From: Candidatus Taylorbacteria bacterium RIFCSPHIGHO2_12_FULL_45_16
GTDB lineage: Bacteria; Patescibacteriota; Minisyncoccia; Phycocordibacterales; PALSA-1337
Direction: 5' to 3'
NCBI GenBank assembly: GCA_001821055.1
Contig: MHRT01000006.1
Coordinates: 8,572 to 72,571, forward strand
Length of the DNA: 64,000 nucleotides
Every line of letters starts with the position of its first letter. Position 1 is the first letter of the stretch. The position numbers were made by a program, and so were the translations under genes. Positions 5,878 to 46,902 of this stretch are shown here, one piece after another. The notes under the pieces are model-generated. The model saw nothing but the letters and a program-made list of their open reading frames with translations, was not told where the DNA came from and ran no database searches.

Positions 5878-6630
5878 CTACTCCCCCAAATACGCCTCAA
5901 TAACGTCTTTGCGCGCCAGCACCTCGCTCGGCTTCCCTTCTGCCAATAGCTGACCGGCATCCAGCACATAGAGATGATCGGACAATTCGCGGATCAGGTC
6001 CATGTTGTGCTCGATCAGCACCACCGTCTTGCCGTGCTCGCGTAATTCCTTCATCACTGCCACCACCGTCTTCGTCATTTCCGGAAAAAGTCCGGCGAAC
6101 GGCTCGTCGAAGAAGACAATCTCGATATCACCGACGCCACCATGGACAATGGCCAGCACTCGGGCGATCTCCAGAAGTTTACGCTGGCCATAAGAGAGGT
6201 TCTTGGCCAGCTCATTGCGCTTGTCCCAAAGACCAACTTTCCGGAGCACTTCCTCGGCCTTCTCCAAATGAAAGGCTGTGTGCCTCTCGAACAGCGACCG
6301 CCAGATGCTCCGCTCCGTCAGGACCACCAGGATATTATCCAGAACCGGCATCTGTTCGAACAAGCGGACATCTTGGAATGTGCGAGTTATGCCATAGAAC
6401 GGGACTTCGTAGGCTCTAATACGGGTTAGTTTTTCTGCGCCAGCAATGATGACTTCTCCGCCATCGATCTCGTGCATGCCAGTGAGGACATTGACCAGTG
6501 TTGATTTGCCCGAGCCGTTCGGCCCGATGATCGAGGTGATCTTGCCTGACTCAAAGGAAATCGAAAGTTTGTTGACGGCATAGACTCCGTCGAAGTGCTT
6601 GGTCAGGTTGTGGGTGGTAAGGAGGGGCAT
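5878..6630 (-). CDS. livG: Branched-chain amino acid ABC transporter ATP-binding protein (LivG-like)
   Basis: GPNGSGKST Walker A, LSYGQRKLLEIARVLA signature, FFDEPFAG Walker B, LivG-type N-terminal extension. Confidence 0.85.
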   Translation of the reverse strand: MPLLTTHNLTKHFDGVYAVNKLSISFESGKITSIIGPNGSGKSTLVNVLTGMHEIDGGEVIIAGAEKLTRIRAYEVPFYGITRTFQDVRLFEQMPVLDNILVVLTERSIWRSLFERHTAFHLEKAEEVLRKVGLWDKRNELAKNLSYGQRKLLEIARVLAIVHGGVGDIEIVFFDEPFAGLFPEMTKTVVAVMKELREHGKTVVLIEHNMDLIRELSDHLYVLDAGQLLAEGKPSEVLARKDVIEAYLGE

Positions 6631-6636
6631 GGATTT

Positions 6637-7326
6637 TTATGCCAGATTAATCAGGCTTTTTGTGATACGTTGAACTTCTTTTCTGAAAAATTCCTTTACT
6701 ACCTTCCAGCTTACTTCGAAGTAAATTTCTGGGGTAGGATCATCTTCGGCATCCTCAAAATAGACAAGGCTTTTGAGGACATGGCTGGGGTTTTGTTTGA
6801 CTGAATATTGGAGTTGCGCGGACTCAATACTCTTCATGAGGTCTTGAACGTGGAGAGAAATCCAGTAGAGGTCGATGAAATCGCGTTTTTTGCCGCGTTG
6901 ACATATTGCCACGATTTTCATGGCGGCGATGTCCTCAGGTCTGACCAGAGAAACAGTTCCGATCTTTAAAAACGGCTTGGAAAAAGTGACGAACGGATAG
7001 GCGATCAAGCTTATTTTAGCTCCATCAATTTCCCCGAATATCGTCCCTGGACTAAGTGAGGTTGTTTTCCATGCCCCAAGCATACTCAATGTCTCTTCAG
7101 CTTTTTTTTCGTCAAAAGATTTCTCGGTGGTGAAAAAATCAAGATCTACGGACTTGCAATGTCCGACTTGCAGTGCAAGCGCTGTTCCCCCAGCCAAATA
7201 CCATCCGCCTGTTGAAAAAAATTGAAAGGTAATGCATTTCAAAAATGCCTTCTGCGTGACATCAGGCAGAGCACTCAAATGCAATCCATCTAAAACTAGT
7301 TGATCTATGTTAGGAGAAGCGTCCAT
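6637..7326 (-). CDS. Nucleotidyltransferase, AbiEii/DUF1814-like (type IV TA / abortive infection toxin family)
   Basis: Motifs YLAGGTALALQVGHCKSVDLDFF and KIVAICQRGKKRDFIDLYWI match the AbiEii NTase fold signature; 6 bp upstream of livG stop, overlaps upstream small ORF by 22 nt. Confidence 0.6.
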   Translation of the reverse strand: MDASPNIDQLVLDGLHLSALPDVTQKAFLKCITFQFFSTGGWYLAGGTALALQVGHCKSVDLDFFTTEKSFDEKKAEETLSMLGAWKTTSLSPGTIFGEIDGAKISLIAYPFVTFSKPFLKIGTVSLVRPEDIAAMKIVAICQRGKKRDFIDLYWISLHVQDLMKSIESAQLQYSVKQNPSHVLKSLVYFEDAEDDPTPEIYFEVSWKVVKEFFRKEVQRITKSLINLA

Positions 7327-7529
7327 AATGCTTTTGATTTAGGGGCGACTTGGCTTCGGGGTAAATCCATAACCTGTCTGATCTCTTCTTTTGGATAGGT
7401 TTTGAAAAGCCAGCCAACCTCATCAAGTTGTCCAAAATCCAAAATCCGTTCAATGATGTATCGAGCATTTTTCTTGATATCAATATTGTCCGGATTGGTA
7501 TCCCAGAACAGCGATTGCCTGAATTTCAT
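7305..7529 (-). CDS. Small protein (74 aa), putative cognate partner/antitoxin of the AbiEii-like nucleotidyltransferase
   Basis: Overlaps NTase start by 22 nt (translational coupling geometry); conserved-looking LFWD...ARYIIERILDFG segment; far shorter than canonical AbiEi. Confidence 0.4.
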   Translation of the reverse strand: MKFRQSLFWDTNPDNIDIKKNARYIIERILDFGQLDEVGWLFKTYPKEEIRQVMDLPRSQVAPKSKALWTLLLT

Positions 7530-7588
7530 GCCTATATTATAGCATATTTCAGCTCCAAAATCACCGAAAATGGCAAGTAATTGTCCGC

Positions 7589-38645: not shown

Positions 38646-39545
38646 TTACTTTTCCGAACTTACAATCTGCACTGCTTTCGTAACTATCGGCAGGATGTCA
38701 TTATAAAAATTCAATTCAAGAATATCGGCCAGTTTGAACCACTTGGCGTCATCAAGTCCTGGTTTCTTGGCTAATTGTAATTCTGTAAATTTAGACTCGG
38801 TTAAATAATAGTGGACCTGCTTTCTAATTTTCCCGATTTCTGGATCATTGGCAATATACTCATTTTGTCCCAAATCTTCAATAATCTTCACCTCAAGACC
38901 GATCTCCTCTTTGACCTTGGCGACCGTGCCTTCGCTAGGGTCAACACCCTCCGGAATTTTACCTTTTGACAGGGTCCAGTGGCCAAAGGCATCATGAACG
39001 AAAGCGAAATATATTTCTTCGTCTTTTTTGCCATACACCACTGCTCCGCCCAAATGTTGGATTGGCATCTGCTCATATGGAACCTCGACCTTCTTCTTTT
39101 TGACTGGTTGAGCATCTTTGCCTGGTTCACCAAGCTCTTTGTACACGGCACCAAGTACGCCGTTGACGAATCGTCCGCTAGTTTCACCACCAAATGTTTT
39201 AGCCAACTCGATGGACTCGTTTATGGCGACTTTTGCCGGAACTTCGGCTCGATCGGCAAACAAAAGCTCATATAGACCGAGACGCAGGACATTGCGGTCA
39301 ACCGGAGAAATTTTGTCCAAAGGCCAATCAGGCGCAGCTTTGGCGATGATATCATTCAAGTCCTGTTTCTTGGCCAGAATGCCCTTCATCAAAGAATCAA
39401 TAAATGAAACATCAGTAACCCCGGGAGCAAACTCCTTGGTATTGCGGGCGATGATGGCTGACACGGTCTCGTCACGCTGACCACGCGCGTCCCACTCAAA
39501 GAGGGACTGCAGAACAACTGAACGAGAGAGATGTCTATTGGCCAT
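38646..39545 (-). CDS. nusB: Transcription antitermination factor NusB fused to a C-terminal Nudix-fold domain
   Basis: N-terminal 150 aa NusB (SRSVVLQSLFEWD...RFVNGVLGAVYKE); Lys-rich linker; C-terminal ~135 aa with GHWTLSKGKIPEGVDPSEGTVAKVKEEIGLEV (degenerate Nudix box). Confidence 0.7.
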   Translation of the reverse strand: MANRHLSRSVVLQSLFEWDARGQRDETVSAIIARNTKEFAPGVTDVSFIDSLMKGILAKKQDLNDIIAKAAPDWPLDKISPVDRNVLRLGLYELLFADRAEVPAKVAINESIELAKTFGGETSGRFVNGVLGAVYKELGEPGKDAQPVKKKKVEVPYEQMPIQHLGGAVVYGKKDEEIYFAFVHDAFGHWTLSKGKIPEGVDPSEGTVAKVKEEIGLEVKIIEDLGQNEYIANDPEIGKIRKQVHYYLTESKFTELQLAKKPGLDDAKWFKLADILELNFYNDILPIVTKAVQIVSSEK

Positions 39546-39674
39546 TTTGATTAAAGAACAGATATCATTTTATGTGACTTGTAAGAAACTCTAAATTCTA
39601 AGTTCTAAATCCTAAAAAAGATCAAATGCTTCTCAATTTAGAATTTAGTGTTTAGAGTTCAGAACTTTACTAAC

Positions 39675-39896
39675 TTACTTCTTGGCGGTTTCCGTCTGTT
39701 TCTTGGTCTTCTTGGCGACTTTAGCCGCCAGATCCAAAATCTTGCGTCCATTATACCATCCGCAATTCATACAGACAGTGTGGCTCTTGTGGCCGACGCC
39801 GCAATTTTGACACTTTGAAACACGCCCAGCGACAAGTGCGTGATGTGAGCGCCTATTATTGCGATGTGAGCGTGTGGCACGCATGCGAACTACCAT
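39675..39896 (-). CDS. rpmF: 50S ribosomal protein L32
   Basis: MVVRMRATRSHRNNRRSHHAL...KCQNCGVGHKSHTVCMNCGWYNGRKI matches L32 Zn-ribbon form; tracked ORF begins at an upstream TTG. Confidence 0.75.
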   Translation of the reverse strand: MVVRMRATRSHRNNRRSHHALVAGRVSKCQNCGVGHKSHTVCMNCGWYNGRKILDLAAKVAKKTKKQTETAKK

Positions 39897-40120
39897 GAAA
39901 AGTAGTATCGCATATTCAGAAGTTTTTCGCAAACTACGCGCGAGCCTATCCTAAGCATCCACTAAGTATGATATACGGACCACGGGCCGAGAGTCTTTAT
40001 CTTGTCATGTAATCCAGCAGAAGATAGATCATTGTCAAGTCAGAGAAAATGCTGTACATTACTGTTTGTCATATACCCATAAGCGTCTTGATAGATATCG
40101 AATGATTATTGAAGAAAAGA

Positions 40121-40193
40121 GCGCCCATAGCTCAGTTGGTAGAGCAGATCCCTCTTAAGGATAAGGTCGTAGGTTCGATCCCTACTGGGCGCA
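40121..40193 (+). tRNA. tRNA-Lys (anticodon CTT)
   Basis: GCGCCCA acceptor, D-loop AGUUGGUAG, anticodon loop CUCUUAA, T-arm GUAGG-UUCGAUC-CCUAC; followed by perfect hairpin gcaaccctgc-tgat-cgcagggttgc at ~40204-40229. Confidence 0.8.
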
Positions 40194-40279
40194 CTACTTC
40201 GCAACCCTGCTGATCGCAGGGTTGCTTCGTAGCGCGAGCACTCTGAATACGCTCACTGTTAAACAAGACACGGCACAGC

Positions 40280-40308
40280 TTGACATATATTTATAAATAT
40301 GATAGTAT
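40280..40308 (+). promoter_or_regulatory. Sigma70-type promoter TTGACA-N17-TAGTAT
   Basis: Near-consensus boxes upstream of ORF 40430; the tracked ORF start at 40280 is the -35 box itself read as TTG. Confidence 0.45.
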
Positions 40309-40429
40309 CTTGGACAGATTCTTAAACAGACGTTTCTGCTCAATATATCCGGGCGTAAGCTTGGGAGCAGGACATCAACTCGGCGCAAGCCGAAAACTCG
40401 TGCGAATGCACATTGGAAAACCGAATACT

Positions 40430-40918
40430 ATGAAGAAAAATATTGATACGACCAAAAAGGCCGAGACCAAAACCCTTCGCAGCCGCAAAGCCGCGTGCGA
40501 CAAAACCACCACGAAAACGGCCGCGAAGAAAAAGGTTGTCCTGCCCCTCTACTGCAACAGGAAGAACCCCTTCACGCCGGAAGCGTGGGCATGGGTAAAC
40601 AAGGAAGACGTTTGGCCCGGAACGGATAAACCTTTGTGTTTCATGCCGCCAAATCTGATCTTCGAGATCGCGAATGCGCAAAGACGAACACTGGACCTGG
40701 ACCAAGTCAAAGTTCTGGTTTACCCTGAAGGACCGACTGCCGAAATGTGCTCGTTATTGGCGGCAAAAAAGCCAACCCCTGAAGAAAAAATCTTCACCCC
40801 GGTGAACTATGCTTACGCCGTCAGTCCCAAAGGGTTGGAGCAAATCGAGGCAGGCACGCCTCTGGCTGAAGTAAAGGGTTTTTTTTCGGGGCGGACCATA
40901 CTACGTCAACAAAGGTAA
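40430..40918 (+). CDS. Hypothetical protein, Lys/Thr-rich N-terminus, GC-rich
   Basis: ATG MKKNIDTTKKAETK...; no family recognised. Confidence 0.4.
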   Translation: MKKNIDTTKKAETKTLRSRKAACDKTTTKTAAKKKVVLPLYCNRKNPFTPEAWAWVNKEDVWPGTDKPLCFMPPNLIFEIANAQRRTLDLDQVKVLVYPEGPTAEMCSLLAAKKPTPEEKIFTPVNYAYAVSPKGLEQIEAGTPLAEVKGFFSGRTILRQQR

Positions 40919-41324
40919 GACGGAGGCAAAGGCATTCAGTGGGAGTCCGCTCCGCTTCAATTCTTCCAGCAAATGCTACTGGAGAAATGATGGGTCTTCG
41001 CTCGTAATCCAGGCAAAAGCGATAGGCCTCAAGTTAAACGGCAGCGAAGAAGATCCAGTGTGGGGTGTGCCCTTCAGTGAAATCGAAAAGGTCATCAAGG
41101 CACAATTACGGAAAACCGAGCTCTTCAATTTGGCCTCCCAGATGGCTGGAGACCTTACAAATGGACGCGAGGAAAACCGACGCCGGCGCTGGGATCATCG
41201 TATCGGTGATCATCCCTTCGAACATGGCAAGCGGAAAGACCGCCCGCGAAACAGGCATCACTCGGCCGAGGAGGCCGATTAACAAAAATATCTCGTGAAT
41301 TGAGATCAAACAAATATAACCCAG

Positions 41325-41360
41325 CCCCGGACAAATCACTGTCTGGGGCGAAATTTTTTA
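41325..41360 (+). terminator. Rho-independent terminator
   Basis: ccccggaca-aatcac-tgtctgggg + cgaaattttttat. Confidence 0.6.
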
Positions 41361-41420
41361 TACCAGAGAACCTATATTTTTAGGCCTATTTTTACCTTAC
41401 TTTAGCAAAGCACATAAAGC

Positions 41421-41448
41421 TTGACAAAGCCATTGTATATGTTATAAT
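41421..41448 (+). promoter_or_regulatory. Sigma70-type promoter TTGACA-N16-TATAAT
   Basis: Perfect -35 and -10 hexamers ~65 nt upstream of first ATG of the 41514 gene. Confidence 0.55.
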
Positions 41449-41513
41449 AGCACGAGTAACTGAAGACTTGATCGTAGTGACTTTTGAAAACAAAAACCTT
41501 GCCCGAAGTCATC

Positions 41514-42683
41514 ATGCTTTGGGTATCAACAGAAAAGACAAGACATATGAAGAAAACAACACCTGCAGGATTCACCACTGCACAGCTTGCCGCAGCACGA
41601 AAAAGCGGAGGGACTATCAAGCTTGGTGGTCCGGCTCCCGCCAAATCGGCAACAAAACCCGCTCCCACGACAACCAAACCCGTCGCGACCACCGTCAAGG
41701 TGAGCACTCCGGCAAAGACGGCAACATCCGGTGCCCCGACAAAGGCAAAGATGGCACGCATCCGCAAGAAGGTGACGACTGGCACTTCTGCTTCTGGTCG
41801 AACGCCGGCGGCAATCCCGCCGATTATTCCGCCGCCAGTGATTCCACCGCCCATTCCAGTTTCGACACCATCGAAAGTTTCGTGGTGGAAAAAATTGATT
41901 CGGGCAAACACAGCAACGGCTACGGCACCGGTCCGTCACCACAATTGGTTCGGATGGTTGTTCTTGATCATCGTGATCTTGGCAATCATCATTGGGCTGA
42001 TGTGGAAGAACAGCTGGCTCTTCTTCTCGGAGAAACCAGCAGTTCAGATCGTTCGCGGGGTACTCGCGCCTCAAGTCGAAGTTTCGAATGCCCTGATTCC
42101 ACTGCCAGCGAGCACAAATCAGACACTGGCGACCGTTACACCGACAAACCCACCGGTACCTGTATTGGCAGTGACTCCGACATCCGGAGTCTCAAACAAC
42201 ACGGTTCCGCATAATCAACAGTGGCCTTCAAAAGTCACTGGCATCGAAGGCGACAACAACGACGGAAACACCGTCGTAAACAACTTCGGTACCATAAACT
42301 ACACTACGGATGGTAGCAAAGGTGTAATGATCACGGTCAAGACGAACCTACCGGGGGAGGTAAATGTACCGTTCAGGTTGCCACCTGGATGTACATCTGT
42401 CCGTGAAATCCGAGTCCACCCTTCATCGTGGAACAGTTCCGATGTTCCGCCAGTCAACGTGGAGATGAAGCCCGGCGAATACGTCAGGGTCATTCCCCCA
42501 CCAACCTGGCTGATGGACGGCCCTTACGTGGCCGACGGTCCCATCATGGTTACTCACGACGGGGTCACTTGGGACCACCGGAATTCCGCCAGGATTACAG
42601 TCAAGGAGTGGGGTTACTACATGTTGCCAGGTACAACGGCATGCAATGTGGTGATCAACTTCAAGAACCCAAAGCACCAGTAA
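41514..42683 (+). CDS. Hypothetical single-pass membrane protein with Pro/Thr-rich basic N-terminal region and ~220-aa extracytoplasmic domain
   Basis: Central TM WFGWLFLIIVILAIIIGLMW; PPIIPPPVIPPPIP repeats; tracked start 41484 is TTG, first ATG 41514 (alt 41548). Confidence 0.5.
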   Translation: MLWVSTEKTRHMKKTTPAGFTTAQLAAARKSGGTIKLGGPAPAKSATKPAPTTTKPVATTVKVSTPAKTATSGAPTKAKMARIRKKVTTGTSASGRTPAAIPPIIPPPVIPPPIPVSTPSKVSWWKKLIRANTATATAPVRHHNWFGWLFLIIVILAIIIGLMWKNSWLFFSEKPAVQIVRGVLAPQVEVSNALIPLPASTNQTLATVTPTNPPVPVLAVTPTSGVSNNTVPHNQQWPSKVTGIEGDNNDGNTVVNNFGTINYTTDGSKGVMITVKTNLPGEVNVPFRLPPGCTSVREIRVHPSSWNSSDVPPVNVEMKPGEYVRVIPPPTWLMDGPYVADGPIMVTHDGVTWDHRNSARITVKEWGYYMLPGTTACNVVINFKNPKHQ

Positions 42684-42701
42684 ATTCGAGTCCGATTCAC
42701 A

Positions 42702-42739
42702 GCGCGCGGAATGGAAACATTCCGCGCGTCTCCTTTTAT
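42702..42739 (+). terminator. Rho-independent terminator
   Basis: gcgcgcggaatg-gaaa-cattccgcgcg + tctccttttat. Confidence 0.65.
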
Positions 42740-42819
42740 ACGTATAGAAAGTGCTTCAAAATAGAAACAAAATCTATTTATTTCTGTATATAAAACCTAA
42801 TTTAATCTAGGTTTTGAGC

Positions 42820-42849
42820 TTGACATTATGGCATATATCATGATACAAT
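42820..42849 (+). promoter_or_regulatory. Sigma70-type promoter TTGACA-N18-TACAAT
   Basis: Near-consensus boxes ~100 nt upstream of ATG 42952, which has a GGTGAG SD. Confidence 0.5.
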
Positions 42850-42951
42850 TGTCACAAAACCAATGGTACCTGTGCGGTATCAAAGAAACTTGAAAACCAA
42901 CTTCAAACCAATGGCTTTCTACGCACGAGAGAGTCTAGATGGTGAGAAACT

Positions 42952-43926
42952 ATGAACACCAATGACACAGAACAGGTAAAAAAACCTGTACCCTATTACC
43001 GAACGATGGATAGAAAGATATTTGTATGGGTCGGCAATGCAACCTTACTTGCATCTTTCGTCATCCTGACGGCAATGGGCCTCGAGTACATAACGCCGTT
43101 TGCCTTCGGGGCATGCGTGCTAGCTATGTGCTACTTCGTGACCATCATCTTGTTCTTCCTCGGAGGATACAAGAAATTCCTCGCTCCTGTGGCTGATCTG
43201 CATGCCGGCGTACTGATCAATCGGTTCTTTGGCCGCAAGGCACCCAAAACCGATACGGAAAGTTTGAGTCTCAAACCAGCCGCCTTTCTGGAGGAAGTAA
43301 GTTCTGGAATCTGGAACTCAAAATTCCCCTGGCAATCGGTTACATATGTCAACCTTCAGCGACATGTTGCCGTTGGAGGAAAACCTGGGGAATCTTACTC
43401 CTATGATCAGATTGCGCACACTTTCCTCTGGTTCGGCACCGTGAGAGCGGTGCAAGGATACTGCTGTACCTTGGTCAGGATTGGGGCACAAGCCGCAATA
43501 AATTCGATTGAAGGCCTGACTGATGCCGCCGTTTCCGTGGATATCAACAAGAGGAAATGGAAAGAAATAATTAGGGAACAAGCTCATCTCGCAAAAAACC
43601 TCGAAGAGCACTATGGTGGCGACGGGAACATGAGTGATAAGGAAGCCGGATTTGGCTTGGCCATAGAGCGTCTTGTTCTTCGAAAAGTAACTCGTAGCAA
43701 GGAGCTCCAGGATTCCGCCGAACTCGTCGAGCGCAATAGAAATCTGAGAGAAGCTGTCAGGATACTTAAAGGAAGCAAGTTGGCGGAAGGAACACATCTC
43801 ACGGACAAAGAAGCAACCGACCGTGTGCTCATGGAAGCCGGTAAGGGCGACTTGAGGGTGTTCGAAGGCCTTGAAGGCATGGGAAGAAATGTGCTCCTTA
43901 ACGTTGACAGGGGCGGAAACAAGTAA
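42952..43926 (+). CDS. Hypothetical membrane protein (two N-terminal TM helices, cytoplasmic alpha-helical domain)
   Basis: ATG with SD; TM helices VWVGNATLLASFVILTAMGL / AFGACVLAMCYFVTIILFFLGG; no family recognised. Confidence 0.5.
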   Translation: MNTNDTEQVKKPVPYYRTMDRKIFVWVGNATLLASFVILTAMGLEYITPFAFGACVLAMCYFVTIILFFLGGYKKFLAPVADLHAGVLINRFFGRKAPKTDTESLSLKPAAFLEEVSSGIWNSKFPWQSVTYVNLQRHVAVGGKPGESYSYDQIAHTFLWFGTVRAVQGYCCTLVRIGAQAAINSIEGLTDAAVSVDINKRKWKEIIREQAHLAKNLEEHYGGDGNMSDKEAGFGLAIERLVLRKVTRSKELQDSAELVERNRNLREAVRILKGSKLAEGTHLTDKEATDRVLMEAGKGDLRVFEGLEGMGRNVLLNVDRGGNK

Positions 43927-43941
43927 CCGAATGGAGTCATT

Positions 43942-44457
43942 ATGGCAAATGAGAGTAATGAGAATTCCTTGATCGTCGGACCGGAACAAGGTTCGATAAA
44001 TCTTGAGGGCGACCCAAAAGCGAAGTGGTATGCTCGTGCAATCACGGGCGGGCCACAACAATTCGGCCTGATCGTCCTATTCATGCTCACCTTGATCACG
44101 GTCTGGTACTTTCGGACATACGGTCTAAGCGGGCTAGTAACCGAAGGATCACGAAGATGGAATTGGGGTGACGCCCTCCAACCGTCGCGATCAACTACTC
44201 AACCATCCATCACCATCACAAAAGATGTCTGGAGTACGGAAGTACATCCCGGGAATAGAAAATTCTGGGTGTTATCGATCACGCCACCAGCCAGACGTCT
44301 AGTAATGGTCAATAACAACCCCGACTTGATCTATCCATTGCCAGCAGGGCCAGCTAACGAGGTGGTCGTCGGCCACGACGTCGAATCGTTGAAATGGATG
44401 ATCGTGCCGGACGAAACCGTCCAGTATTCAACCATCACATACGAATACAGACGTTGA
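43942..44457 (+). CDS. Hypothetical single-TM protein (171 aa)
   Basis: GGAG SD then ATG; TM FGLIVLFMLTLITVWYF; ends at bidirectional terminator. Confidence 0.45.
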   Translation: MANESNENSLIVGPEQGSINLEGDPKAKWYARAITGGPQQFGLIVLFMLTLITVWYFRTYGLSGLVTEGSRRWNWGDALQPSRSTTQPSITITKDVWSTEVHPGNRKFWVLSITPPARRLVMVNNNPDLIYPLPAGPANEVVVGHDVESLKWMIVPDETVQYSTITYEYRR

Positions 44458-44475
44458 GACAGTTCTTTGCAAAAC

Positions 44476-44508
44476 GGCCTAGGAGCAATCCTAGGCCGTC
44501 CTTTTTTT
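44476..44508. terminator. Bidirectional rho-independent terminator
   Basis: ggcctagg-agcaat-cctaggcc flanked by aaaa and ctttttttat; separates + strand island genes from - strand pilin-like array. Confidence 0.7.
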
Positions 44509-44525
44509 ATCATGAAAATACTCTC

Positions 44526-44819
44526 TTATATTCCCTTCACCGTATTCGAGATTATTTGGATAATCCCCCAAGCCGATAACATAATAAACATCCCGATGAC
44601 TCCTCCCCACATGCTCCTCTTGCCTTTTTCATGAGTCTCACCTCCGGGTTCTCCCCAAACAACTTGAAAAACCCCGTAAGCAAAGACTACAACCGCCGCG
44701 GCAAACAGAAGAACAATAATCGGATCAATTATGTGAGTGAAAATCGGGTTGACTACCCTGCCAAAAGCATCCGCATTCACTTCGGCGTATGCGTTCTCAA
44801 CAAAAGGTAAAAAACTCAT
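44526..44819 (-). CDS. TrbC/VirB2-like two-TM pilin-family small protein, paralog 1
   Basis: 98 aa from ATG right after upstream stop; two hydrophobic helices IIVLLFAAAVVVFAYGVFQVV / MWGGVIGMFIMLSAWGIIQII separated by short polar loop. Confidence 0.45.
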   Translation of the reverse strand: MSFLPFVENAYAEVNADAFGRVVNPIFTHIIDPIIVLLFAAAVVVFAYGVFQVVWGEPGGETHEKGKRSMWGGVIGMFIMLSAWGIIQIISNTVKGI

Positions 44820-44824
44820 GAAGA

Positions 44825-45181
44825 TTAAGGGATCTGGCGAGGATACTGAACCTGTGGAAATTGGTTGACTGGAGCGTTGGTATCGGTGCGGAAAGTATTG
44901 GTCAAGATGCGGACAAGTCCCCAAATAGAGAGGATGACGAAGAGGCCAACTATGCCCCAGAGGATGGATTGACCGATAGGTCCGCGAGCTTCTTTGTCGC
45001 CGGCCATAATGTAACGAATGACATTGAAAATGATGAAAATAACCGCGAAGGCTATGAGGATTTCTATTACGACATTGCCAATATTGGTGAGTTTGTAAGT
45101 CAGAGAATTGACATCAGTGATCGCTTGAGCAGAAACGACGGTCGGAATAGAGACTGCGAGAACTGCTAGTATTTTCTTCAT
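44825..45181 (-). CDS. TrbC/VirB2-like two-TM pilin-family small protein, paralog 2
   Basis: Signal peptide MKKILAVLAVSIPTVVSAQA, then helices VIEILIAFAVIFIIFNVIRYI / ILWGIVGLFVILSIWGLVRIL. Confidence 0.55.
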   Translation of the reverse strand: MKKILAVLAVSIPTVVSAQAITDVNSLTYKLTNIGNVVIEILIAFAVIFIIFNVIRYIMAGDKEARGPIGQSILWGIVGLFVILSIWGLVRILTNTFRTDTNAPVNQFPQVQYPRQIP

Positions 45182-45316
45182 GATAATATTGTTATGTTTA
45201 TTAGTGTTGTTAATTATACATTACATATCAGACAATACAATCTAACTACTGTGGATTACAAAACTGTTGGAAGTTAATATGAAATCTATTTTTGTTCAAG
45301 TAGACGAGACTTTGCG

Positions 45317-45844
45317 TCAAAAGCTTGGATCTCGTGATGAGTTAGGGTTCGCATTATTTGGTGTAGTGACAGAAGATGGATTACCTGACACACCAGGAGC
45401 AACTCCTCTAGGAGTACCCGTATTCACGGTCCCGGGAGTAACCGAAGAAGGATTACCGCTTGTATTGCCTCCCGCCGGAAACAATCCCTTGAACGATGTC
45501 CAGGAAGCCGGTTGATTGTTTTCGTTTTTTAACCCAAAGGTATTTTGCAATATATTGACCAATCCCCAAAATGAAAGAATGACGAAGAATCCTATGAGAC
45601 TATACATGACGTACAAGCTGGCGTTTTTTCTGTCTTCATTCGGCTTGATGAAGTACTGGATGATGTACCAGACAAAGATGACCACGGCCAGACCGATCAT
45701 TAAGACCAAGAACTGGTTCAAATAACCAATGATTATATTGATGACGCAAGCCAGATTTTTCTGTGAACAGACTTGTGCCTGAGTTACAAAGGGAAAAATA
45801 ACAAGAATGAAAGCTGAAAGATAGAGTGGAAATTTTTTAAACAT
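45317..45844 (-). CDS. TrbC/VirB2-like two-TM pilin-family protein with Gly/Asn/Pro/Ser/Thr-rich repeat tail, paralog 3
   Basis: Signal peptide, two helices, C-terminal tail with SGNPSSVT duplicated. Confidence 0.55.
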   Translation of the reverse strand: MFKKFPLYLSAFILVIFPFVTQAQVCSQKNLACVINIIIGYLNQFLVLMIGLAVVIFVWYIIQYFIKPNEDRKNASLYVMYSLIGFFVILSFWGLVNILQNTFGLKNENNQPASWTSFKGLFPAGGNTSGNPSSVTPGTVNTGTPRGVAPGVSGNPSSVTTPNNANPNSSRDPSF

Positions 45845-45866
45845 GATAATAATGATTAATAATTAA

Positions 45867-46292
45867 TTATTTGCCGATGGCGCTACGAACACTGTTAATG
45901 GTCTTTGGGTCTACGGTACCCGACAAAGAAAGCGTGTTGATGACGACCTCAATGATCACTCGAGCGCCAATGACCACGGCCACACCGACCACAATCCACC
46001 ACAGCCAATTCTTGAGATCTTTCATTTTCGTCACGTCGCCCCGAGAGACGATATACTGAAAGCCAACCCAGATCAAAGCCAGAACGGCTATAATTATGAC
46101 GACGTAACTGAATATTTCCACGAAACTCTGAACCAAACCGGCAACGGAATCAACTTTTAGCGGGTTGGAAAGAGTAAATGTTTTCGTTGAGTCTGAGGTT
46201 GATTGGGCAAAAACAAATACCGGCAAAAACAAAAGGGTGGTTAGGCCAAAAAAATATTTTAGTTTATAGGATGTGGTTTTAATCATGAACAC
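45867..46292 (-). CDS. TrbC/VirB2-like two-TM pilin-family small protein, paralog 4
   Basis: Signal peptide ...LPVFVFAQS, helices VVIIIAVLALIWVGFQYIV / WLWWIVVGVAVVIGARVII. Confidence 0.55.
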   Translation of the reverse strand: MFMIKTTSYKLKYFFGLTTLLFLPVFVFAQSTSDSTKTFTLSNPLKVDSVAGLVQSFVEIFSYVVIIIAVLALIWVGFQYIVSRGDVTKMKDLKNWLWWIVVGVAVVIGARVIIEVVINTLSLSGTVDPKTINSVRSAIGK

Positions 46293-46293
46293 T

Positions 46294-46902
46294 TTAAGGG
46301 CTTCCCAACAGAGTCTTGAAACCGCTATTATCAGTCAGCCAACTCAAGATCTGATAAACAATGAACCAGGCCGATAGCATTATTATAAACCCTAAGAAGA
46401 TTTTGGGGAAGATACTATGAGCTTTGTCGATTTTGGCTTTTTGGCCAGAAATATAAAGTAAACCAGCATAAGATAACATCAGTATGGCAACCAAAACGCC
46501 CAGAACCATCATTATATTGATCAGATGCTGAACTAGAAGAATAACGGCGTCGAAATCACAAGGCACGTAATCACGATTGTTGTTTGCGGCTTTGAATTCC
46601 GCCATCGTCTTTATACTGAATTGAGTATAAGCTCCGGTGACATCTTTTGGCAGACTCGGCCCATCACAGACCGCTATTCTGAAGGCAGAACTGTTGGGAT
46701 TGGTGGAGGGTTCCAGCTGGGATTGCAGGGTGCGAGCCGGAACGGTAGTCGGAGGTGGTGGTGGCTGATTGCCGACAGATTGAGCTTTTACAATACTGTC
46801 TGACCAGACATTTGAAGTCAAAACCACCACGACAATCAAACAAATACTAGCACAGACTTTGGTATTTTTTGAAAATATTTTATTTTGATTACATTTGTTC
46901 AT
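46294..46902 (-). CDS. TrbC/VirB2-like two-TM pilin-family protein with Pro-rich, Cys-containing N-terminal region, paralog 5
   Basis: Signal peptide, PPPPPTT stretch, CDGPS...PCDFD, then helices IMMVLGVLVAILMLSYAGLLYI / IFLGFIIMLSAWFIVYQIL. Confidence 0.5.
   Translation of the reverse strand: MNKCNQNKIFSKNTKVCASICLIVVVVLTSNVWSDSIVKAQSVGNQPPPPPTTVPARTLQSQLEPSTNPNSSAFRIAVCDGPSLPKDVTGAYTQFSIKTMAEFKAANNNRDYVPCDFDAVILLVQHLINIMMVLGVLVAILMLSYAGLLYISGQKAKIDKAHSIFPKIFLGFIIMLSAWFIVYQILSWLTDNSGFKTLLGSP

Follow-up and report, generated by a model that had tools for sequence, protein, structure and literature searches.

Hypervariable surface loci of the replacement type, such as O-antigen and glycosylation islands, lie between conserved flanks. 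Replacement-type flexible genomic islands keep a fixed position between such flanks, differ between close relatives in that functional analogues without homology fill the same place, and combine envelope proteins with a recombination breakpoint at a conserved edge, as does the locus described here. Unlike O-antigen and glycosylation islands, it consists of membrane proteins around a putative SPFH scaffold and has no glycosyltransferases; it further differs from replacement-type islands in its small size (3-9 kb) and in inner promoter-terminator spacers that would allow sub-cassette exchange. SPFH-NfeD operons (E. coli QmcA-YbbJ, PDB 8z5g; archaeal stomatin-STOPP) are two-gene units that resemble two of the genes reported below, G3 and G4. 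VirB2-like pilin arrays have been described in Patescibacteria (PMC12102498), and one is essential in Ca. Southlakia epibionticum (PMC10633639); the array beside our locus is of this kind, and array and locus are both variable envelope components, although the locus itself contains no pilin. The available portions of these two papers mention neither SPFH genes nor this cluster beside the arrays.

The window, that is, the whole 64-kb stretch of DNA that was analyzed, comes from a genome of Candidatus Taylorbacteria, which belongs to the CPR (ultrasmall bacteria). A first-pass annotation had singled out a block of four genes in it and had read this as either a tRNA-inserted island without an integrase or a surface-protein cassette; its observations were partly confirmed and its interpretation is partly supported. 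The block is in our view probably a lineage-specific, replacement-type hypervariable cell-envelope cluster around an SPFH scaffold and not a mobile element. It belongs to Candidatus Taylorbacteria and close relatives, where it occupies a fixed slot from tRNA-Lys(CTT) to a VirB2-like pilin array.

Transcription units and encoded proteins

The tRNA-Lys gene was recovered directly upstream of the block, as annotated (Table 1). The block itself is predicted to form three autonomous units (G1 alone, G2 alone and a G3-G4 operon); in each, a near-consensus promoter with an extended -10 element is followed by a leader of some 100 nt, and an intrinsic terminator ends the unit. All three promoters of the first-pass annotation were found again and rank among the top four promoter-like sites by score when 14 kb are scanned; in the window only five sites, P1, P2 and P3 among them, join a perfect TTGACA to an extended -10 element. 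Its three clean terminators likewise proved to be the strongest in the 14-kb scan, with stems of 10-12 bp and 7-8 GC pairs. G4 starts 16 nt past the G3 stop codon, and the interval is free of terminators.

Table 1. Positions of the features of the locus within the window.
Feature	Position	Strand	Description or basis
tRNA-Lys (anticodon CTT)	40121..40194	+	ARAGORN; Rfam tRNA, 70 bits
Promoter P1	40280..40308	+	TTGACA-17-TAGTAT, TG-extended, 10/12; predicted to drive G1
G1a, 5' part of G1	40430..40918	+	162 aa, Lys/Thr-rich N-terminal tail; ORF, translation
T8 homopolymer, G1 frame break	40879..40886	+	Three-frame translation
G1b, 3' part of G1	40887..41282	+	131 open codons, +1 frame, basic tail at end
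Intrinsic terminator T1	41324..41359	+	10-bp stem, 7 GC pairs, T-rich tail
Promoter P2	41421..41448	+	TTGACA-16-TATAAT, TG-extended, 12/12; predicted to drive G2
G2, predicted bitopic membrane protein	41547..42683	+	378 aa from ATG; ORF, translation
Intrinsic terminator T2	42702..42739	+	12-bp stem, 8 GC pairs
Promoter P3	42820..42849	+	TTGACA-18-TACAAT, TG-extended, 11/12; predicted to drive G3-G4 operon
G3, divergent SPFH/Band 7 membrane protein	42952..43926	+	324 aa
G4, small protein	43942..44457	+	171 aa; ORF, translation
Intrinsic terminator T3	44474..44509	+	11-bp stem, 7 GC pairs, T7 tail; closes G3-G4 unit
Five VirB2/TrbC-like pilin genes	44526..46902	-	Pfam T4SS_pilin/TrbC matches

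These signals are kept in relatives. The P1 hexamers and their spacing also precede the G1 homologue of L009, which carries an identical 12/12 P2 promoter; P3 is kept in L009, L015 and L016, and promoter strength in L009 is the same as in the window. Promoter and leader stretches are 76-78% identical between the window and relatives, and the 222-nt intergenic stretch that contains T1 is 76% identical to that of L009. T2 reaches 92% identity to L009 and 87% to L016, with the adjoining genes only 25-58% identical as proteins.

None of the four genes gives a passing match in Pfam, PHROGs, PADLOC or NCBIfam, so the annotated lack of a recognizable family holds at that level; it fails for one conserved family, as G3 can be assigned to SPFH by structure, profile-profile comparison and Pfam-matching family members. 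Membrane anchoring applies to G2, G3 and G4, which have one, two and one hydrophobic helices, but not to G1, which is predicted to be soluble.

Reading-frame analysis indicates that G1 is a single gene whose frame is broken by a +1 shift at the T8 run. G1a has no hydrophobic helix and matches the first half of a single L009/L018 gene (265-275 aa) with 26% identity over 152 aa (tblastn), and G1b matches the second half of that gene, uninterrupted in L009/L018, with 31% over 133 aa. The family-invariant residues S170, G171, W211 and G212 are retained beyond the shift. The frame can be restored by a +1 shift or by a T7 or T10 run; the same T8 stands in all four distinct assembly records (one contig under L001/L006, and L002, L003 and L007), and a collection of 15 billion proteins does not contain the in-frame T7 and T10 proteins.

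In G2, a single hydrophobic helix (residues 134-152) separates an N-terminal region of 130 residues rich in Thr, Ala, Pro and Lys, which bears out the annotated low-complexity parts, from a beta-rich C-terminal region with a GDNNDGNTVVNNFG motif. The low-complexity tail and the beta-rich domain would lie on opposite sides of the membrane. An alternative upstream start (TTG at 41484) is possible. G2 is a sequence orphan, itself the sole match among 5.8 billion proteins; it shares 25% identity with its positional counterpart in L009 (366 aa) and 29% with that in L016, and proteins at this position share a common architecture in 17 species.

G3 combines two N-terminal hydrophobic helices with a core at about residues 135-250 and C-terminal helices. 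AlphaFold2 models it with medium confidence (pLDDT 61 overall, 70-88 in the core) and leaves residues 72-134, between anchor and core, unmodeled. All 50 matches listed by Foldseek against the PDB have the SPFH fold (48 SPFH-family proteins, QmcA among them, and two major vault proteins), with a best E of 1.8e-7; among these listed matches, those to isolated SPFH domains reach a TM score of 0.80, and superposition on mouse and Pyrococcus stomatin gives TM up to 0.80 and an rmsd of 2.3-2.7 Å over about 112 residues. Two members of the family, those of L022 and L067, exceed the Band_7 gathering score of Pfam, and hhalign pairs G3 with the type-B family at 94% probability (E 1.4e-7). Together, the model, the profile-profile comparison and the Pfam-matching relatives identify G3 as a divergent member of the SPFH/Band 7 superfamily of scaffolds (stomatin, prohibitin, HflK/C, QmcA, flotillin; PF01145), with which it shares membrane anchoring at the N-terminus and long C-terminal helices. 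Unlike typical SPFH proteins, the G3 of the window is too diverged for sequence search, falling below every Pfam threshold and giving no match in NCBIfam or in a PDB sequence search. A further difference is that its gene is hypervariable between close relatives, with two deep allele classes (types A and B) at one locus. We know of no SPFH gene with this property.

G4 has a helix at residues 41-59 and, C-terminally, a beta-sandwich domain about 85 aa long, for which AlphaFold2 gives pLDDT 82-96. Foldseek against the PDB returned no fold of significant similarity (best E 0.04), and its matches include no NfeD chain; an exhaustive search yielded 14 relatives, and Pfam gave no match for ten relatives. 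The sandwich is jelly-roll- or cupin-like and belongs to an undescribed family. G3 and G4 resemble SPFH-NfeD operons in that an SPFH gene is followed within 16 nt by the gene of a small membrane-anchored partner in one transcription unit. Unlike NfeD partners, G4 has a single N-terminal anchor and no NfeD or OB-fold signal, and Pfam NfeD matches none of the 89 ORFs of at least 100 aa in the gaps between tRNA and pilins, including 15 proteins at the G4 position. The positive-inside rule suggests that the G4 domain lies outside the cell and the SPFH domain of G3 in the cytoplasm. A G4-like domain also occurs once in an unrelated context, beside a DUF87/TrwB-type ATPase.

A conserved slot in relatives

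A genome scan with the neighboring NusB-Nudix protein as query gave 80 species loci. tRNA-Lys follows L32 in 37 of them, often with tRNA-Leu(TAG) next to it, and the tRNA-Lys of L009 is 100% identical to that of the window. Where enough downstream sequence was present, an SPFH-like gene lies on the same strand 3-9 kb downstream (23 of 28 loci); four loci whose sequence runs on for 5-10 kb past tRNA-Lys lack it. The order in these 23 species is L32, tRNA-Lys, 3-9 kb of + strand genes, the SPFH gene and the VirB2-like pilin array, usually with a small anchored beta-sandwich protein between the last two. All 19 genome-scan loci that reach the pilin array have the SPFH gene at the pilin-proximal end of the gap, and the gene for a small anchored partner follows it in 14 of the 19 (15 of 20 with the window). 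Five more contigs, found through relatives of G3 and G4, carry an unknown gene, a gene at the SPFH position and a G4-like gene in that order; four (L015, L097, L103 and L104) have the G3-G4 pair beside pilin genes, and the fifth (L016) ends before the pilins. The architecture of a bitopic protein, a two-helix SPFH protein and a small anchored protein recurs across relatives, which share the gene order beside tRNA-Lys. The pilin array is convergent with the block and holds the same position in relatives; tRNA-Lys is the conserved left border of a variable locus and the array its conserved right border. GroEL, LemA and a solute-binding protein are also syntenic. A comparison of relatives for an empty site, as the first-pass annotation had suggested, found one (L034), in which tRNA-Lys and tRNA-Leu lie about 100 bp from the pilin array.

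Divergence, replacement and alternative readings

Amino-acid identity between the window and L018 is 89% for NusB-Nudix and for RNase III, 81% for the solute-binding protein and 57-80% for the pilins, and falls to 58% for G3, 50% for G4, 26-31% for G1 and 25% for G2. The coding regions of the block thus diverge far faster than the flanks (25-58% versus 81-89%), and the coding DNA of G1 and G2 has no blastn-detectable similarity to relatives. On a neighbor-joining tree of NusB and RNase III, built without support values, carriers of SPFH type A are interspersed with carriers of type B; this could also reflect ancient paralogues and differential loss. The sister pair L021 and L022 carry types B and A, respectively, and their 4.8-kb gaps show no blastn similarity between flanks that are 75-83% identical in DNA. 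L015 and L032 are 97% identical from the middle of G4 through 4.8 kb of pilins and the solute-binding protein, whereas their G3 proteins are about 26% identical, as is the N-terminal half of G4 (about 25%), the last 44 residues of which are 100% identical. Alleles were swapped here by recombination with a breakpoint inside G4. This direct evidence comes from one strain pair, of which L015, a 7.6-kb contig derived from just one sequencing run, could be a mis-joined assembly.

The marked rise in GC that had been noted is real but modest (49.6% versus 45.9% and 45.5% in the flanks). Per-gene values (GC 0.49-0.54, GC3 0.54-0.59) compare with 0.461 ± 0.039 and 0.489 ± 0.078 for other ORFs of the window, and all four genes are inside its GC and GC3 range. 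Across 20 species, gap GC (0.46-0.58) varies less than flank GC (0.38-0.63), with a regression slope of 0.40, and is above flank GC in 15 (Wilcoxon p=0.005). This compressed range could stem partly from amino-acid composition; GC2 of G2 is 0.52, against 0.38 elsewhere.

A remnant of an integrative element or prophage in tRNA-Lys that later lost its integrase would have in common with tRNA-associated islands the abutment on the tRNA 3' end, the GC 3-4 points above the flanks and the empty site of L034, and would also fit the non-homologous content of sister species and the proteins without family annotation. The block lacks the other marks of such islands: the tRNA-Lys 3' end, proposed as a guide to an att site, is not repeated anywhere in the 64 kb, no integrase, recombinase or phage-like protein was found, and searches for similarity to phages, plasmids and viral contigs gave none. 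Moreover, 23 other species have clusters of the same architecture and orientation here, the promoters and terminators of different species are orthologous, and GC stays in the normal gene range of the window. This origin is largely refuted and we regard it as very improbable. What survives of the island idea is the non-homologous sister content, the one empty site, the composition drawn to a common mean and the one allele swap. An ordinary core region, inherited vertically and changing fast by point mutation under relaxed constraint or positive selection, would instead account for the conserved synteny and gene architecture, for the gradual fall in identity to L018 from G3 to G2, as expected of per-protein constraint, for low-complexity regions, which evolve fast anyway, and for the G1 frameshift, which suggests relaxed constraint. 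Point mutation cannot, however, be the source of the abrupt switch inside G4 from 97% identical flanks to about 25% protein identity. The alternation of two SPFH classes between sister taxa, the absence of blastn similarity between L021 and L022 gaps within flanks about 80% identical, and a gap GC that tends to one shared value across the 38-63% GC span of the genomes also speak against purely vertical change, which we consider unlikely.

The cluster could also be an accessory module of the VirB2-like pilus or a T4SS-like apparatus and not an independent envelope module, with an SPFH ring that scaffolds pilin insertion or pilus assembly and with G2 and G4 as pilus-associated adhesins. The pilin-proximal SPFH gene of the 19 loci that reach the array, with its frequent partner, the G3-G4 pairs beside pilins in the extra contigs, the ATPase next to one G4-like domain, and the essential and variable nature of VirB2-like arrays, the former in a cultivated Saccharibacterium (PMC10633639, PMC12102498), are in line with this proposal. 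Against it, the whole neighborhood is colinear throughout the family, so that adjacency to pilins is not independent evidence; block and array converge and each has its own termination, no VirB4- or VirB6-typical family is among the 25 most frequent of the 90 Pfam families of the window, and L034 has a pilin array without the cluster. We view the proposal, its ring and adhesin version taken jointly, as doubtful; some functional link of the cluster to the neighboring array is possible.

For the hypervariable envelope cluster that we favor, a mechanism is proposed in which coding regions diverge or are exchanged through homologous recombination and in which flanks and promoter-terminator spacers are retained; being conserved, these spacers can serve as recombination anchors. 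G3, anchored by its N-terminal helical hairpin, would oligomerize to form an SPFH ring or cage attached to the membrane, where it would organize or protect partner membrane proteins, and G2 and G4 may display fast-evolving domains at the cell surface. The annotated surface-protein cassette is thus broadly right, with three of four proteins membrane-anchored and a hypervariable locus, and with surface exposure as a prediction. These episymbionts are thought to depend on host cells, and diversifying selection on G2 and G4 could come from phages or from those hosts.

Genomic setting and expression units

To its left the block (40194-44510) is bordered by housekeeping genes (ClpB, an SMC-like ATPase, RNase III, a NusB-Nudix fusion and L32) and to its right by five minus-strand VirB2/TrbC-like pilin genes, beyond which lie a solute-binding protein, a methyltransferase, tRNA-Ser, TPM, LemA and GroEL/ES. 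The window belongs to a CPR/Patescibacteria genome recovered from aquifer metagenomes, and exact-protein look-ups found its proteins on over 20 contigs from that population. Families typical of VirB4 or VirB6 are absent from the 25 most frequent of the 90 Pfam families found window-wide. The tRNA-Lys(CTT) gene noticed in the first-pass annotation does adjoin the block. tRNA-Leu(TAG), which in most relatives stands directly 3′ of it, is missing here and in the closest relative; none was found in the 64-kb window, including 40194-40280. The reported rise in GC is real (49.6% in the block versus 45.9% and 45.5% on its two sides), but all four genes stay inside the range of the window's genes, with GC of 0.49-0.54 and GC3 of 0.54-0.59 against 0.461 ± 0.039 and 0.489 ± 0.078, respectively, for the other genes.

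Features of the block and its immediate neighbours
Feature	Position	Strand	Remark
NusB-Nudix fusion protein	38646-39545	-	299 aa
tRNA-Lys(CTT)	40121-40194		
Promoter P1	40280		10/12 consensus positions
G1 5′ leader	40315-40435		
G1a ORF	40430-40918	+	162 aa; stop 32 nt past T8 run
T8 run	40879-40886		
G1b, +1 frame past T8	to 41282	+	open for 131 further codons
Terminator T1	41324		
Promoter P2	41421		12/12 consensus positions
G2	41547-42683	+	
Terminator T2	42702		
Promoter P3	42820		11/12 consensus positions
G3	42952-43926	+	
G4	43942-44457	+	
Terminator T3	44474		
Pilin array	44526-46902	-	five small T4SS_pilin/TrbC (VirB2-like) genes

The promoters and terminators proposed from the first reading were both recovered. 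Each of the three promoter-like sites combines a perfect TTGACA with a TG-extended -10, and a 14-kb scan places all of them within its top four by score. A perfect -35 and an extended -10 occur together at only five sites in 64 kb, three of which fall inside the 4.3-kb block. The three terminators are the strongest of the 14-kb scan. In the relative L009 the same three promoters recur with equal scores, as do the terminators, while the coding DNA has diverged, thus indicating that the regulatory DNA is more conserved than the coding DNA it serves. The block comprises three autonomous, strongly promoted and cleanly terminated predicted units. An Rfam scan of 39500-45000 (E ≤ 1) returned the tRNA only, so that the 100-nt 5′ UTRs match no described leader or riboswitch. 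The predicted fold of the G1 leader is more stable than those of its shuffled counterparts (z = -3.1; 2 of 200 shuffles equal it), and the other 5′ UTRs are unremarkable in folding stability. A shared UTR motif, TTGRAAAAC, was discarded for want of enrichment (4 matches versus 2.8 expected).

Protein families of the block

At the level of above-threshold matches in Pfam, PHROGs, PADLOC and NCBIfam, the four genes do lack a recognisable family, as first described. Structural and profile comparison nevertheless gives G3 a family, and G1, G2 and G4 stay unannotated. G3 itself does not match Pfam PF01145 at E ≤ 1, and PDB sequence searches with the G1, G3 and G4 profiles gave nothing meaningful. 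An AlphaFold2 model of G3, built from a 9-sequence alignment (pLDDT 61 overall, 70-88 in the core), was compared with the PDB using Foldseek, and 50 of the 50 matches listed have the SPFH fold: 48 are SPFH-family proteins and two are major vault protein, the types listed being prohibitin, stomatin, HflK/C, QmcA, flotillin, erlin and major vault protein. E values reach 1.8e-7, with TM scores of up to 0.80 and rmsd of 2.3-2.7 Å on isolated SPFH domains. Hydrophobic helices lie at residues 23-41 and 52-70, and the model contains helices at 19-69 and 72-92, a strand/helix core at 138-248 and long helices at 250-274 and 285-296, which gives the N-terminal anchor, SPFH domain and C-terminal helical region expected of SPFH/Band 7 proteins.

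Two SPFH families, type A (which includes G3) and type B, are found at the G3 position in relatives. The Pfam Band_7 gathering score (23.6) is exceeded by type A members at L022 (37.3 bits) and L067 (24.5 bits) and by the type B proteins of L021, L053 and L054, and the two profiles align with 94% probability in hhalign (E 1.4e-7; 79% in a first local run). Because of the fold matches, the members of both types that pass Band_7 and the match between the type A and type B profiles, G3 is assigned from its modelled fold as a divergent SPFH-domain membrane protein. Its closer relatives are few, with only three other clusters among 5.8 billion proteins (52-57% identity), and the contigs that carry them are syntenic with the window. 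SPFH proteins have well-established precedents as ring scaffolds in the structures of HflK/C-FtsH, QmcA-YbbJ, stomatin and prohibitin. By analogy, G3 could form a membrane-attached oligomeric ring that organizes or shields partner membrane proteins.

A candidate partner is G4, which starts 16 nt past the G3 stop with no intervening terminator and a single terminator after it; the G3-G4 pairing recurs in relatives. In sharing one predicted operon with an SPFH gene, G4 resembles the partner in SPFH-NfeD operons, but it differs from NfeD, the classical SPFH partner, in that no similarity to NfeD is detectable. No Pfam match to PF01957 (OB-fold) was found in G4, in ten relatives or in the gap proteins of 20 species (the gap being the variable stretch between tRNA-Lys and the pilin array), and no NfeD chain occurs among the Foldseek PDB matches of the C-terminal domain, so identification of G4 as NfeD was rejected. 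An exhaustive HMMER search with G4 yielded 14 relatives, mostly small proteins that share a C-terminal domain of approximately 85 residues. This domain is modelled as a small β-sandwich (pLDDT 82-96) with no significant Foldseek neighbour in the PDB (best E 0.04, cupin/jelly-roll-like) and weak jelly-roll matches only among viral structures. Contig L101 (4549-7354) encodes a 271-aa protein whose C-terminal domain is G4-like, adjoining a DUF87/TrwB-type ATPase, with an OLD-TOPRIM nuclease plus UvrD helicase (Gabija-like) and type I restriction genes in the surroundings; this context is defence-island-like and unrelated to the Taylorbacteria locus.

The description of the products as membrane-anchored proteins with low-complexity parts applies to G2, G3 and G4, which have one, two and one hydrophobic helices, respectively, and to the G2 N-terminus, whose 130 residues are rich in Thr, Ala, Pro and Lys; G1 has no hydrophobic helix and is not membrane-anchored. 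A search of 5.8 billion proteins with G2 returned G2 itself only. A protein with one central hydrophobic helix is nevertheless encoded immediately 5′ of the SPFH gene in 17 species; the helix is preceded by a Pro/Ala/Thr/Lys-rich low-complexity region of highly variable length. A short Asn/Gly/Val-rich motif follows approximately 60-100 residues past the helix in proteins at the G2 position, in the window as GDNNDGNTVVNNFG.

G1 is one of a small family, represented at four loci, of soluble proteins whose tails are basic, and its reading frame is broken at the T8 run. Both halves align in order to one single-frame gene of 265-275 aa in a relative (26% and 31% identity), and the four-member family alignment continues across the junction (...AEVKGFF|RGGPYYVNKGK...) with invariant residues kept downstream. 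The T8 run separates the two halves of G1 within the coding region, as does the frame-setting homopolymer of a phase-variable contingency gene; however, T8 is seen in four of four separate assembly records, the truncated 162-aa form is present on 23 contigs, and a collection of 15 billion proteins holds no in-frame T7 or T10 form. A pattern scan of metagenomes recovered no copy of the tract of any kind and is therefore uninformative on its length. With no tract-length polymorphism in the assemblies or the protein collection, phase variation finds no support there, and a recent, fixed frameshift is the most economical reading, with a pseudogene, slippage-dependent expression and phase variation as the candidate states of G1. 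Expression might be rescued through transcriptional slippage or a +1 ribosomal slip on UUU-U. After such a slip at T8, tRNA-Phe could re-pair.

A probable replacement locus between conserved flanks

A genome scan with the NusB-Nudix protein, taking one genome per species, gave 80 loci at 66-92% identity. At least 539 stretches in the scan encode relatives of this fusion, which is therefore widespread in the group. tRNA-Lys(CTT) lies 3′ of L32 in 37 of the 80 loci, with tRNA-Leu(TAG) close by in 25 of these 37, usually directly after it. Where enough downstream sequence is available, an SPFH-like gene is found on the same strand as tRNA-Lys, 3-9 kb downstream, in 23 of 28 loci, and was not detected in four; in every SPFH locus that reaches the pilin array (19/19), the gene occupies the pilin-proximal end of the gap. 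Five further contigs, located through G3 and G4 relatives, have the same gene order, and four of them reach the pilin array.

This distribution bears on whether the block is a mobile island inserted at the tRNA or a surface-protein cassette, the two readings first put forward. An island at a tRNA predicts att repeats, an integrase and sporadic presence. The 22-mer from the tRNA 3′ end (≤3 mismatches) and the 13-mer (≤2) match the tRNA itself only, and neither the block proteins nor the family summary of the relatives' 89 gap proteins includes an integrase or recombinase. Scans of phages and plasmids (blastn) and of viral contigs with the block found no relatives, and Pfam, PADLOC and PHROGs identified no phage protein or defence family in it. 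Among the relatives, L034 has an empty site, where both tRNAs lie approximately 100 bp from the pilin array; this was seen in one species, whereas 23 of the 28 informative species carry the cluster at this position. The smallest cluster is that of L042, the sister of L034. The mobile-island reading is not supported, and the surface-cassette reading is supported in a sharper form: a hypervariable locus of the replacement type, with a predicted envelope function and built around an SPFH core. Fixed position and divergent content between conserved flanks, the marks of a hypervariable locus, are both observed.

The divergence is concentrated in the cluster. Against the closest species, L018, amino-acid identity is 89% for NusB-Nudix and for RNase III, 81% for the solute-binding protein and 57-80% for the pilins, and falls to 58% for G3, 50% for G4, 26-31% for G1 and 25% for G2; cluster proteins thus span 25-58% and flank proteins 81-89%. 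Conservation of the DNA within the block is limited to the tRNA (100%), T2 (92%), promoter/leader segments (76-78%) and the segments encoding the G3 and G4 membrane helices.

Divergence alone could produce such a gradient, but several comparisons point to replacement. Types A and B are interleaved on a neighbour-joining tree of NusB plus RNase III, to the extent that the sisters L021 and L022 carry B and A, respectively; their flanking DNA shares 75-83% identity, yet blastn finds no similarity in the 4.8-kb gap. From mid-G4 through the pilins and the solute-binding protein, a stretch of 4.8 kb, L015 and L032 match at 97% identity. Upstream, G3 is approximately 26% identical and the N-terminal half of G4 approximately 25%, with the last 44 G4 residues at 100%; the spacer between G2 and G3 shows 83% identity, and of the 14 codons that open G3, 10 are the same in both. 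The switch has the signature of a recombination breakpoint inside G4, seen in one pair, of which L015 is a short single-run contig. Gap GC regresses on flank GC with a slope of 0.40 in 20 species (gap 0.46-0.58, flanks 0.38-0.63) and exceeds it in 15 of the 20 (p = 0.005). Circulation of the genes among lineages would be expected to produce such compression, although amino-acid composition also has a part in it. Replacement, and not divergence alone, is thus supported by sequence comparison, with the recombination evidence drawn from a few genomes. Whole alleles could be swapped between lineages by means of the conserved flanks and spacers.

Further variation within the gap was noted. In L018, L021 and L022 the first gene after the tRNAs encodes a small protein (108-163 aa) with CheY-type-receiver-like sequence, no Pfam match at E ≤ 0.01 and no counterpart in the window. 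A soluble family of approximately 470 aa, encoded on either strand and without a Pfam or NCBIfam match, occurs in L024, L027, L032, L053, L056 and L058. The enlarged 9-kb gap of L065 contains a Virulence_RhuM family protein (locus coordinates 6556-7581); one ORF of the window also encodes a RhuM-family protein. In L012, one JGI contig of the related species, the sequence upstream of the cluster switches approximately 94 nt after the tRNA-Lys position to an unrelated GDYXXLXY-domain gene (L012 1-570 versus L009 5983-6076), attributable to a rearrangement in this strain at the border near the tRNA or to a chimeric assembly. L009 and L010-L013 appear to differ in G2 (366 aa in the former; 257 aa on the opposite strand and 90 aa in the latter), but their DNA is 100% identical and the difference comes from gene calling.

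Possible function and significance

Charge distribution and the pattern of divergence suggest an outward orientation for the C-terminal domains of G2 and G4, with diversifying selection acting on them. The module may serve the VirB2-like pilus next to it: the two are neighbours wherever sequence reaches the pilins, yet the whole region is colinear in this family. Arrays of VirB2-like pilins have been described in Patescibacteria, one cultivated species of which cannot do without its array, and the available text of the reports concerned makes no mention of an SPFH cluster (PMC12102498, PMC10633639). A broader and distinctly speculative proposal, which we regard as unlikely, is that Taylorbacteria-like CPR keep a recombining cassette slot beside the VirB2-like array, in which lineages trade modules made up of an SPFH scaffold, its small ectodomain partner and a bitopic surface protein, the conserved strong promoter-terminator spacers acting both as expression signals and as recombination anchors and the allele setting host-cell specificity or phage susceptibility. 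If true, this would be a previously undescribed role for SPFH proteins, with a fold that stays constant at the centre of a surface module that diversifies.

The locus belongs with systems of known kinds, SPFH operons and hypervariable surface loci, and includes three protein families that lack annotation. CPR bacteria are thought to live attached to host cells and, to our knowledge, very little is known of the envelope proteins that decide their interaction partners. The locus is strongly promoted, fixed in position and hypervariable, combines an SPFH scaffold with the three unannotated families and adjoins a pilin array, and would thus be a compact candidate determinant of strain-level interaction specificity. 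If allele exchange is general, it would also provide a useful marker of strain-level ecological differentiation and a target for genetics in cultivable CPR. For annotation, a slightly GC-rich, tRNA-adjacent block of 'hypothetical' genes is not necessarily a mobile island; G3-type proteins should be labelled as SPFH-domain proteins and gene 1 flagged as frameshifted.
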